Positions 58,362 to 58,580 of a stretch of 64,000 bases of DNA are shown here, one piece after another. The position numbers and the translations under genes are program-made. The stretch is from the sequence record PV469800.1; one strand, given 5' to 3'. The notes under the pieces were generated by a model. It saw only the letters and a list, made by a program, of their open reading frames with translations. It made no database searches and was not told the origin of the DNA. Each line of letters opens with the position of its first letter. Positions within the stretch are counted from its first letter, which is position 1. The DNA is from Escherichia phage HMD-P10.

Positions 58362-58402
58362 CTTATCTGGTAAATTTTTCAGGTAAGGAGGGCTTTTTCA
58401 TT
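58362..58402 (+). terminator. rho-independent terminator (G-U rich stem)
   Basis: CCTTTCTTATCTG...CAGGTAAGGAGGG 13-bp stem with three G-U pairs, followed by CTTTTT. Confidence 0.4.
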
Positions 58403-58580
58403 TCAGGGTTGTGCAGGTAGATTTCTGTAGAGAAATCTGTAGAGAGAATTTTAAACTCCAAAGAGAAAATTCATTTTCAAACTGTGCAGATAATCTCCAA
58501 AGAGCTTTTTCATTTTCAAAACGTGCAGACCCCGCTCAGGTTGGGCAAGAAAAATCATTTTAGAATTGTGCAGGTAGGTG
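58391..58580. repeat. four iteron-like direct repeats
   Basis: TTTTCATTTTCA-N4-GTGCAG(G/A)TA units at ~58391, 58464, 58503, 58549; additional short tandem repeats (TCTGTAGAGA x2, GTAGGTGGG x2). Confidence 0.6.

Follow-up and report, generated by a model that had tools for sequence, protein, structure and literature searches.

A conserved array of four direct repeats ahead of the right-end early gene block of Felix O1-like phages: a candidate protein-recognition element

Which element fills the gene-free gap ahead of the small early genes of Escherichia phage HMD-P10, and what might it do? The stretch analysed (the window) comprises 64,000 nucleotides (nt) of sequence record PV469800.1. It belongs to a Felix O1-like myovirus, genus Felixounavirus, subfamily Ounavirinae, as judged with a 1.8-kb query around the element, which matched 293 phage records. 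The best match is Escherichia phage vB_EcoM_D4 (97% over the full length of the query); D4 position 22641 corresponds to window position 1. Four copies of a direct repeat are present in the gap. The array is real, unique in the genome, non-coding and not a structured RNA, and its core is under strong purifying selection. Its single occurrence in the genome and the constancy of its core from genus to genus mark it as probably a selected, cis-acting protein-recognition array (probability about 0.8). Binding of a protein to the repeats is suggested by the sequence pattern.

Within the window, four sites and no others match the degenerate 19-mer TCATTTYMRNNNNGTGCAG, all on the plus strand (58398, 58471, 58510 and 58555), with zero matches in 100 dinucleotide-preserving shuffles; the 19-mer was built from these same four copies, the independent support being conservation in other genera. 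With up to two mismatches allowed, 7 matches are found versus 1.15 expected. The four direct repeats of the original prediction, placed in a non-coding gap, are thus genuine. Their predicted spacing of 40–70 bp is close to the measured distances of 73, 39 and 45 bp. All copies are oriented like the flanking genes. The repeats and the short duplication between the first two copies are as follows.

58398–58416, plus strand: repeat core 1, TCATTTCAGGGTTGTGCAG (pattern match, cross-genus comparison).
58424–58433 and 58436–58445, plus strand: TCTGTAGAGA twice, period 12, in the long spacer between copies 1 and 2 (read from the sequence).
58454–58489, plus strand: repeat unit 2, with block A AACTCCAAAGAG (58454–58465), AAAAT and core TCATTTTCAAACTGTGCAG (58471–58489).
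58493–58528, plus strand: repeat unit 3, with block A ATCTCCAAAGAG (58493–58504), CTTTT and core TCATTTTCAAAACGTGCAG (58510–58528).
58555–58573, plus strand: repeat core 4, TCATTTTAGAATTGTGCAG, preceded by the flank GGGCAAGAAAAA.

The core, TCATTT-N7-GTGCA(G/T), is bipartite and asymmetric: roughly one helical turn separates the two invariant blocks, which belong to a unit of about 40 bp. Copies 2 and 3 possess an upstream block, (A/G)A(A/T)CTCCAAAGAG, followed by five A/T positions and the core; they are reported by Tandem Repeats Finder as a 39-nt unit. The flank GGGCAAGAAAAA before core 4 is specific to that copy and is also kept in Erwinia phage Panisse. Two types of 3' flank occur beside the repeat, GTGCAGGT versus GTGCATAG. 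The literal string proposed originally, TTTTCATTTTCA-N4-GTGCAG(G/A)TA, is fully matched by copy 2 except for the AATT lead, but copies 1, 3 and 4 deviate from it. Copy 1 reads TTTTCATTTCAG, copy 3 ends in GTGCAGACC and copy 4 reads AAATCATTTTAG; the repeats share a degenerate consensus, not a fixed string. Both short tandem duplications mentioned there, TCTGTAGAGA twice and GTAGGTGGG twice, are present. The duplication of TCTGTAGAGA is specific to Felixounavirus, lies outside the conserved core and is not present in the spacers of Moogle and Panisse.

The genome-wide motif search proposed with the original prediction finds the motif only in the array (window, rest of D4, Panisse). No further copies occur in the rest of the closest genome, D4 (1–30000 and 74015–89439), and no exact cores occur outside the array in the complete 84.6-kb genome of Panisse. 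A motif after the terminator at 56008 had been read as suggesting a recurring transcription signal. This terminator is indeed followed by CTTTTTCATTTCAGGAG, but this lacks GTGCA and runs straight into a ribosome-binding site (RBS). The suggestion that TTTTTCATTTCAG is such a signal finds no support, no further motif copy being present in two whole genomes. At 54205–54262 of the window, after the rIIB terminator, TTTTTTATTTGTATTTTGTGCAGAG resembles the core, with a weak match at 54217. This site was rejected as a dispersed copy: it overlaps an ordinary sigma-70 promoter (TTGTAT-N16-TATAAT) and has no counterpart in Panisse. The likeness of TTTTTTATTTGTATTTTGTGCAGAG to the core is probably due to chance.

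The array is found in the same syntenic gap, with the terminator of the macro-domain gene before it and early promoters after it, in four genera of Ounavirinae and in one metagenomic relative.

Felixounavirus: wV8, D4, Si3, Bas63.
Mooglevirus: Moogle, Sf14, ESh22.
Suspvirus: EP1.
Kolesnikvirus: Panisse, SB18.
Metagenomic relative: L148, 88 kb.

Each genome carries three to five copies. The spacing varies by genus (73/39/45, 75/41/45, 37/37/39, 73/39/43), and the differences between genera are neither multiples of three nor whole helical turns. Copy 1 overlaps the terminator T-run in every genus. The array is always located 5' of the early-block promoters. In 82 distinct copies, gathered with a pattern that tolerates one core mismatch, so that core invariance is partly built in, A3–T6 of TCATTT and the G, T, G and A of GTGCA are constant; the other three core positions differ in 1–3 copies. 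The seven positions between the core blocks are variable yet A/T-rich. The four bases 5' of the core are always A or T. Weaker base preferences reach from about -19 to +22. The core blocks of Panisse are essentially the same as those of the window, with one C-to-T change in one copy. Identity between the proteins of the window and of Panisse is 33% for the macro protein (44% in the N-terminal domain), 63% for the DNA polymerase and 71% for the primase-helicase. A copy-specific flank, GGCAAGAAAAA, before one copy is common to E. coli and Erwinia phages, and the array is therefore ancient, not recently duplicated.

Scans for a two-copy pattern in IMG/VR, in JGI metagenomes and in 185,579 species genomes (one per bacterial species) did not find the array outside Ounavirinae. 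Other matches in these scans are unrelated satellites and tail-fibre coding repeats. No match was obtained in 5,426 E. coli genomes. It follows that there is no host copy, prophage or satellite behind the array.

Open reading frames (ORFs) of 47–58 amino acids (aa) cross the array on both strands. The original statement that the gap holds neither ORF nor tRNA is correct for tRNA (none in the gap) and only partly so for ORFs, which exist but are not conserved as genes. The GenBank records of D4, wV8, Bas63, Moogle, Sf14, ESh22 and Panisse put one to three 'hypothetical protein' genes over the region of window positions 58411–58603. The annotated ORFs disagree between records in strand, extent and length and are almost certainly gene-caller artefacts. 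A minus-strand ATG is supplied by each repeat (..AAAATGA..). A small protein gene with an internal peptide repeat (minus strand, 58451–58603, 50 aa, or plus strand as in D4 and wV8) is hardly credible, even though several records annotate ORFs here, the 39- and 45-nt spacings hold the minus-strand frame in the window and the repeated ..LHxLKM.. peptides align with the Moogle ORF. The frame is broken by spacings of 43 (wV8), 41 (Moogle), 37/37/39 (Kolesnikvirus) and 38 elsewhere. The Moogle and Panisse ORFs are without significant similarity. Variation in the core forms a run of seven adjacent positions and does not fall on every third base. No RBS is present, all neighbouring genes are on the plus strand, and the annotations conflict with one another as described above.

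A structured RNA was rejected. The best Rfam match, seen at a permissive threshold, has an E-value of 0.083 and 22.5 bits versus a gathering score of 211. Folding z-scores for the two strands are -0.69 and -0.45 versus shuffles.

The gap in which the array is located is gene-free over 519 nt (58325–58843), between the macro-domain gene and the first small early gene. It measures 477 nt if counted to the first in-frame ATG of the next ORF; 470 bp was given originally. In its longest form that ORF matches its PHROG only from residue 15 onward, which places the true start at 58844 and gives the gap of 519 nt. The features around the array are listed from left to right.

57539–58324, plus strand: macro-domain protein gene, 5' of the array (Pfam Macro PF01661, E 7.5e-7).
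58354–58400, plus strand: intrinsic terminator, hairpin (58354–58395) plus T-run (terminator scan, 17 pairs).
58573–58632, plus strand: dimorphic 60-nt segment between copy 4 and the promoter block (allele comparison, G/C counts).
58574–58592, plus strand: GTAGGTGGG(T) twice, a 10-nt duplication in the G-rich allele of that segment.
58633–58702, plus strand: conserved A-rich block with putative promoter P1, TTGATT (58674–58679), 17 nt, TGg-TAGTCG (58694–58702) (alignment; Felix, Moogle and Susp genera).
58754–58782, plus strand: promoter P2, sigma-70 type, TTGACT-N17-TAATAT, with an A/T-rich upstream element (promoter scan).
58844–59224, plus strand: first small early-block gene, 126 aa, PHROG 4495, function not known (PHROG profile match, translation check).

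The order in the gap is terminator, four repeat units, 60-nt segment, A-rich block with P1, P2, leader hairpin, RBS and gene; the 5' leader hairpin and the RBS lie between P2 and the first early gene. The macro gene is named phosphatase/macro in the D4, Moogle and Sf14 records and closes the rIIA–rIIB operon side. A Rho-independent terminator is annotated upstream of the array in the wV8 record. The terminator T-run doubles as the 5' W-tract of repeat copy 1. The -10 of P1 is non-canonical; P1 was read by eye and was not reported by the consensus promoter scan. P2 is kept in relatives as TTGACT..TAGTAT. The downstream gene opens a long run of small genes without known function. DNA-binding domains were not detected in the genes neighbouring the array by Pfam and PHROG scans. 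Farther downstream, at 59225–63241 of the window, the intergenic regions are, almost without exception, promoters that enclose a hairpin, TTTACA-N17-TAAAGT around GGGGCTTA..TAAGCCCC, continued by a common leader and the RBS CCTTAAACTAGGAGATTCAAAAATG. These units have the design of the promoter-early stem-loop (PeSL) cassettes of T4 and match the 57-bp repeats of the Felix O1 paper.

Other known signals were sought and not retained. A sigma-70 promoter with a -35/-10 pair 16–18 bp apart was not found on the plus strand inside 58390–58600; P2 lies outside the array. Sigma-E, sigma-54, sigma-32, CRP, Fis, IHF, OmpR, NtrC, RfaH ops and DnaA consensus sequences gave by eye only partial single-copy matches, not kept across genera and not used as evidence. 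The T4-type late promoter TATAAATA gave scattered chance matches only, with no consistent motif. Promoters for a T7-like single-subunit RNA polymerase were rejected, as dispersed copies are absent (window, D4, Panisse) and Felix O1 is reported to be without an RNA polymerase (PMC3185647).

The flanks of the array are exchangeable. The G-rich allele of the dimorphic segment is found in the window and in D4, and in VpaE1 with 50 nt, without one GTAGGTGGG(T) unit; Tandem Repeats Finder reports its duplication as GTAGGTGGGT in 1.9 copies at 58574–58592. The genomes of wV8, Si3, Moogle and Suspvirus carry an unrelated C-rich allele of 56–60 nt, the complement of which matches the canonical G-quadruplex pattern GGGG-N3-GGGGG-N7-GGGGG-N3-GGGG. 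Inversion of one allele into the other was rejected, a by-eye comparison in either orientation giving nothing convincing. The near-constant length of the segment hints at a distance constraint. In Si3-type genomes the upstream terminator is different and three copies are present; the array is kept. Copies 3 and 4 (query positions 186 and 255) coincide with boundaries of BLAST homology blocks among relatives. Among about 290 records no natural deletion of the array was seen, though its flanks are replaced. In LF110P2 (Felixounavirus, OZ035782.1; L228 2560–2850) a natural deletion joins the array and the C-rich tract to the 3' half of a cassette junction. The fusion lies about 60 nt before the next gene; P1 and P2 are both gone and the array is kept, a condition found in LF110P2 alone among the approximately 290 records. 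Just past copy 4, the 83.4-kb record of Escherichia phage Andreotti (MN850610.1, L229 2700–2789) breaks off with a short inverted duplication (tgcagaccacactcaggtc ... gacctgagtgtggtctgca), an end that looks like an assembly break or artefact and not like a physical genome end.

What the array would do can be proposed with less assurance than that it is a recognition array. The original prediction left a choice between a replication origin, a regulator-binding array and non-canonical promoters. The common core of these options, a selected cis-acting recognition array, is upheld; no single option is established, and sigma-70 promoters are excluded. Transcription control is placed first, as a tentative assignment at well below even odds, with the array as an upstream control or boundary element for the early block. 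It is ranked above an origin, and an origin above tandem promoters. The four repeats would be independent docking sites for one sequence-specific DNA-binding factor, either phage-encoded or a conserved enterobacterial protein. These sites would fill the DNA between the terminator of the rII–macro operon and promoters P1 and P2, which open the right-end block of small early genes. Once occupied, the array would set the amount or timing of transcription into that block, possibly by activating or shutting off P1 and P2 or by keeping upstream read-through out. Whether transcription would be raised or lowered is a guess. Independent sites fit the variation of spacing from genus to genus better than a phased cooperative complex. 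This tolerance, together with the placement between a terminator and the first early promoters, speaks in favour of a control or boundary array.

Several observations weigh against transcription control. Pfam and PHROG scans of about 40 window proteins yielded only one regulator, and no initiator, as candidate binding proteins. It is a 99-aa XRE-type helix-turn-helix (HTH) protein with an acidic N-terminus (20468–20767, minus strand, Pfam HTH_3, E 4e-11), a homologue of Bas63_035, 96–100% conserved in Felixounavirus and 65–79% in Mooglevirus and Suspvirus. Bas63_035 is reported to be dispensable and to trigger the DRT7 defence (10.64898/2026.04.18.719102). The XRE-type protein was rejected as the cognate binder, not being detectable in Panisse although Panisse has the array. 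The array is located 100–370 bp upstream of P1 and P2, far for a classical bacterial activator or repressor. The viable phage LF110P2, with the array and without P1 and P2, argues that the array is not a mere accessory of those promoters. Each downstream gene possesses its own promoter, so a single upstream array cannot simply control the whole block. The literature searched on Felix O1-like phages yielded neither mapped transcript starts nor mapped origins. The text of the PhageMaP paper on Bas63 contains no intergenic result for the gap of the array.

A second role to be weighed is an iteron-type replication origin, in which a phage initiator would bind the repeats and the adjacent A/T-rich promoter region would be unwound, or primed by an early transcript, on the model of T4 oriE. 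This is possible but unlikely. The origins of T7 and T4 are primed by transcription. The phage has a T7-like replisome, with a family A polymerase and a gp4-type primase-helicase. A single array of 3–5 direct repeats in the same orientation per genome is a hallmark of iteron origins, and an A/T-richer block (31–34% GC) with two early promoters begins 60 nt downstream; that block carries promoter upstream elements, and LF110P2, an isolated viable phage, is without it. As in the iteron origins of lambda (ori and O protein), R6K (gamma) and P1 (oriR), several repeats of about 20 bp lie in one orientation at one locus per replicon, near an A/T-richer stretch. Unlike these, the array has no initiator gene that is adjacent or can be recognised, and it lacks regular 11/22-bp phasing, DnaA and IHF consensus sequences and a shift of skew. 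GC and AT skew are unchanged across it, GC skew being positive on both sides without inflection. The sequence TGTGCAGGT has 3 mismatches to the DnaA box TGTGNAWAA by eye. No initiator-like gene was named in the family scans of about 40 window proteins, many of them small and without known function; RepEA and RepEB homologues were not searched for. Copies lie 36–45 bp apart, and the differences between genera are non-integral helical turns, so that the repeats are not helically phased. For 30 kb leftward every gene is on the plus strand, and a leftward fork would run head-on into these genes. The usual sites of such origins are strand-switch regions (PMC3016281); in the window the strand switch lies at 28.7 kb. 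T4 oriE has a conserved cluster of 12-nt direct repeats by an early-mode promoter, the role of which is still undefined (PMC3016281). Like these 'iterons', the array is a unique short direct-repeat cluster of conserved syntenic position, adjoining early promoters of the host polymerase in a lytic myovirus with T4-like early genes (rIIA/rIIB, PseT). The T4 repeats are evenly spaced 12-mers, whereas the array has a core of 18–19 nt, a unit length of about 40 bp and a spacing that depends on the genus; sequence similarity is absent, and the array lies upstream, not downstream, of the promoters. Even the oriE iterons are without a demonstrated link to origin activity (PMC3016281). The repeat-rich, gene-free gap of 521 nt at 21361–21881 in the replication gene cluster is at least as good a candidate. 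Less probable than an origin is a set of tandem factor-dependent promoters. Each unit would then serve host RNA polymerase that a phage factor has redirected, TCATTT would play the part of the -30 activator box of T4 middle promoters, and transcription into the early block would restart after the terminator. Tandem strong early promoters at the start of the early region are common in lytic phages, e.g. T7 A1–A3. The units are asymmetric, oriented like the downstream genes and variably spaced, as independent promoters would be. Nearly all other intergenic regions of the block are terminator-plus-promoter units. The distance from block A to GTGCA is about 35 nt, the size of a bacterial promoter, and the array is the only candidate signal left before the next gene in LF110P2. 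A TAnnnT lies exactly 20 nt from the start of TCATTT in copy 1 (TAGATT, 58418), copy 2 (TAATCT, 58491) and copy 4 of genomes with the C-rich allele (TAGGTT); copy 3 and most of the copies in Kolesnikvirus and Mooglevirus lack it. The likeness to T4 MotA middle promoters and T7 A1–A3 consists of a box about 30 bp before a possible start, a TAnnnT at the right distance in some copies, and tandem same-orientation copies heading an early region; the differences are the -10-like hexamer, which is not conserved, the GTGCA block, which has no counterpart, and the single locus. The invariant GTGCA would belong to a spacer, and occurrence at one locus only in two genomes is odd for a promoter class. 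No sigma-70 pair is present on the plus strand of the array, and a consistent T4-type late motif is absent as well. A MotA/AsiA-like factor is not known from the Felix O1 group. The Felix O1 genome is reported to be without an RNA polymerase or a recognised polymerase-modifying factor (PMC3185647).

Three further explanations are less probable than either of these. The repeats may be non-functional leftovers, i.e. decayed cassette junctions or recombination scars of terminator tails, kept by linkage, which is improbable. Copy 1 does share its T-run with the terminator, TTTTTCATTTCAG also follows the terminator at 56008, and the ends of BLAST homology blocks at copies 3 and 4 make the repeats recombination points. 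Drift would, however, have erased the core, which stays constant in four copies through genera with 33–44% identity in the neighbouring proteins, and the array is never deleted in about 290 records while its flanks are exchanged. As with T4 PeSL cassettes, the array coincides with recombination breakpoints, and its downstream genes are separated by PeSL-type units; the repeat units themselves lack the TTTACA and TAAAGT hexamers and the hairpin of real cassette junctions (TTTACA-hairpin-TAAAGT) and are a different element. More improbable still is a DNA-entry stop or polar boundary like the injection stop signal of T5, with the array as the inner edge of a right-end early block of about 7.4 kb that would enter and be expressed first. 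The last copy in D4 is 7.37 kb from the right end, 8.2% of 89.4 kb, close to the 7.9% taken up by T5's first-step-transfer region (10.1101/866236). The geometry of Panisse is alike: some 7 kb separate its array from the gene-free junction. In T5 the signal is part of a large untranslated region rich in conserved direct repeats, and this region is more conserved than the neighbouring genes (10.1101/866236). Its Repeat Region 3 (10.1101/866236) and the array are both conserved untranslated repeat regions at the inner edge of a terminal early block, about 8% from one end, and both are more conserved than their flanking genes. Repeat Region 3 is 1.2 kb long, forms part of a 10-kb terminal repeat and contains paired DnaA boxes, palindromes and nested inverted repeats, whereas the array has four simple direct repeats, no DnaA boxes and no long inverted repeats, and lies outside a terminal repeat of about 0.6 kb (PMC4837284) that is 6.8 kb away. 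The support for an entry stop is positional only, and conserved synteny alone explains the constant distance. If true, a repeat-bound factor would hold the remaining DNA until early proteins are made, and the right-terminal host-takeover genes would be delivered first; two-step DNA transfer would then be seen for the first time beyond the T5 group, with a simple cis element. Short direct-repeat arrays are the binding sites of the small terminase subunit in lambda cosB and P1 pac. A packaging signal of this kind, pac or cos-like, is highly improbable here. The physical ends are short direct terminal repeats, exact over 581 bp at both record ends of D4, where 6.8 kb lie between the array and the start of the terminal repeat downstream; dense repeats of another kind, YTGTTAR, occupy the junction region. 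Terminal repeats of 581 bp in Pr103Blw (PhageTerm; PMC8303462) and of 608 bp in UAB_Phi87 (Bal31 digestion and sequencing run-off; PMC4837284) have been reported.

Two other repeat regions were observed in these genomes. At the D4 ends (L001 14380–15425, L004 1–1100) a gene-free junction of 1.5 kb carries dozens of YTGTTAR repeats, which are likely to be terminase or end-processing signals. In the metagenomic relative L148, TTAACA, the reverse complement of the junction motif, is repeated right after the TCATTTT..GTGCA array. The gap at 21361–21881, with minus as the local coding strand, is located within the replication and nucleotide-metabolism cluster. Within it, TTTTTAAAAGGTCTTTAA..GGGTYTTTTAATRAGGT recurs in about three units, each with pentanucleotide tracts after it, (GGTNN)x10 at 21758–21807 and x8 at 21621–21660. 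In Bas63, 13 such units occupy the corresponding place; Panisse lacks them. Among the pentanucleotides of the tracts are GGGTC and TGGTC, which are the preferred recognition pentamers of primases of the T7 type, and the gap is thus an alternative origin candidate.

The array was previously unannotated. The Felix O1 genome paper reports twelve direct repeats of at least 24 bp, those detailed lying elsewhere and the array not being among them, and states that regulation of transcription is not understood (PMC3185647). In the wV8 record nine repeat families are annotated in the cassette region, and over the array only a hypothetical ORF. The array is best placed, as a putative member, in the general kind of direct-repeat protein-binding arrays and in no specific family, because it does not pass all the defining tests of any named family.

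Felix O1-like phages are diagnostic and therapeutic workhorses, with more than 290 genomes in the phage collection searched. The array is the clearest conserved non-coding signal found in this genome and offers a defined target of 190 bp. Gene callers put spurious ORFs on either strand of it in many GenBank records. If the gap is taken for a neutral place of insertion in engineering work, a selected element may be hit.

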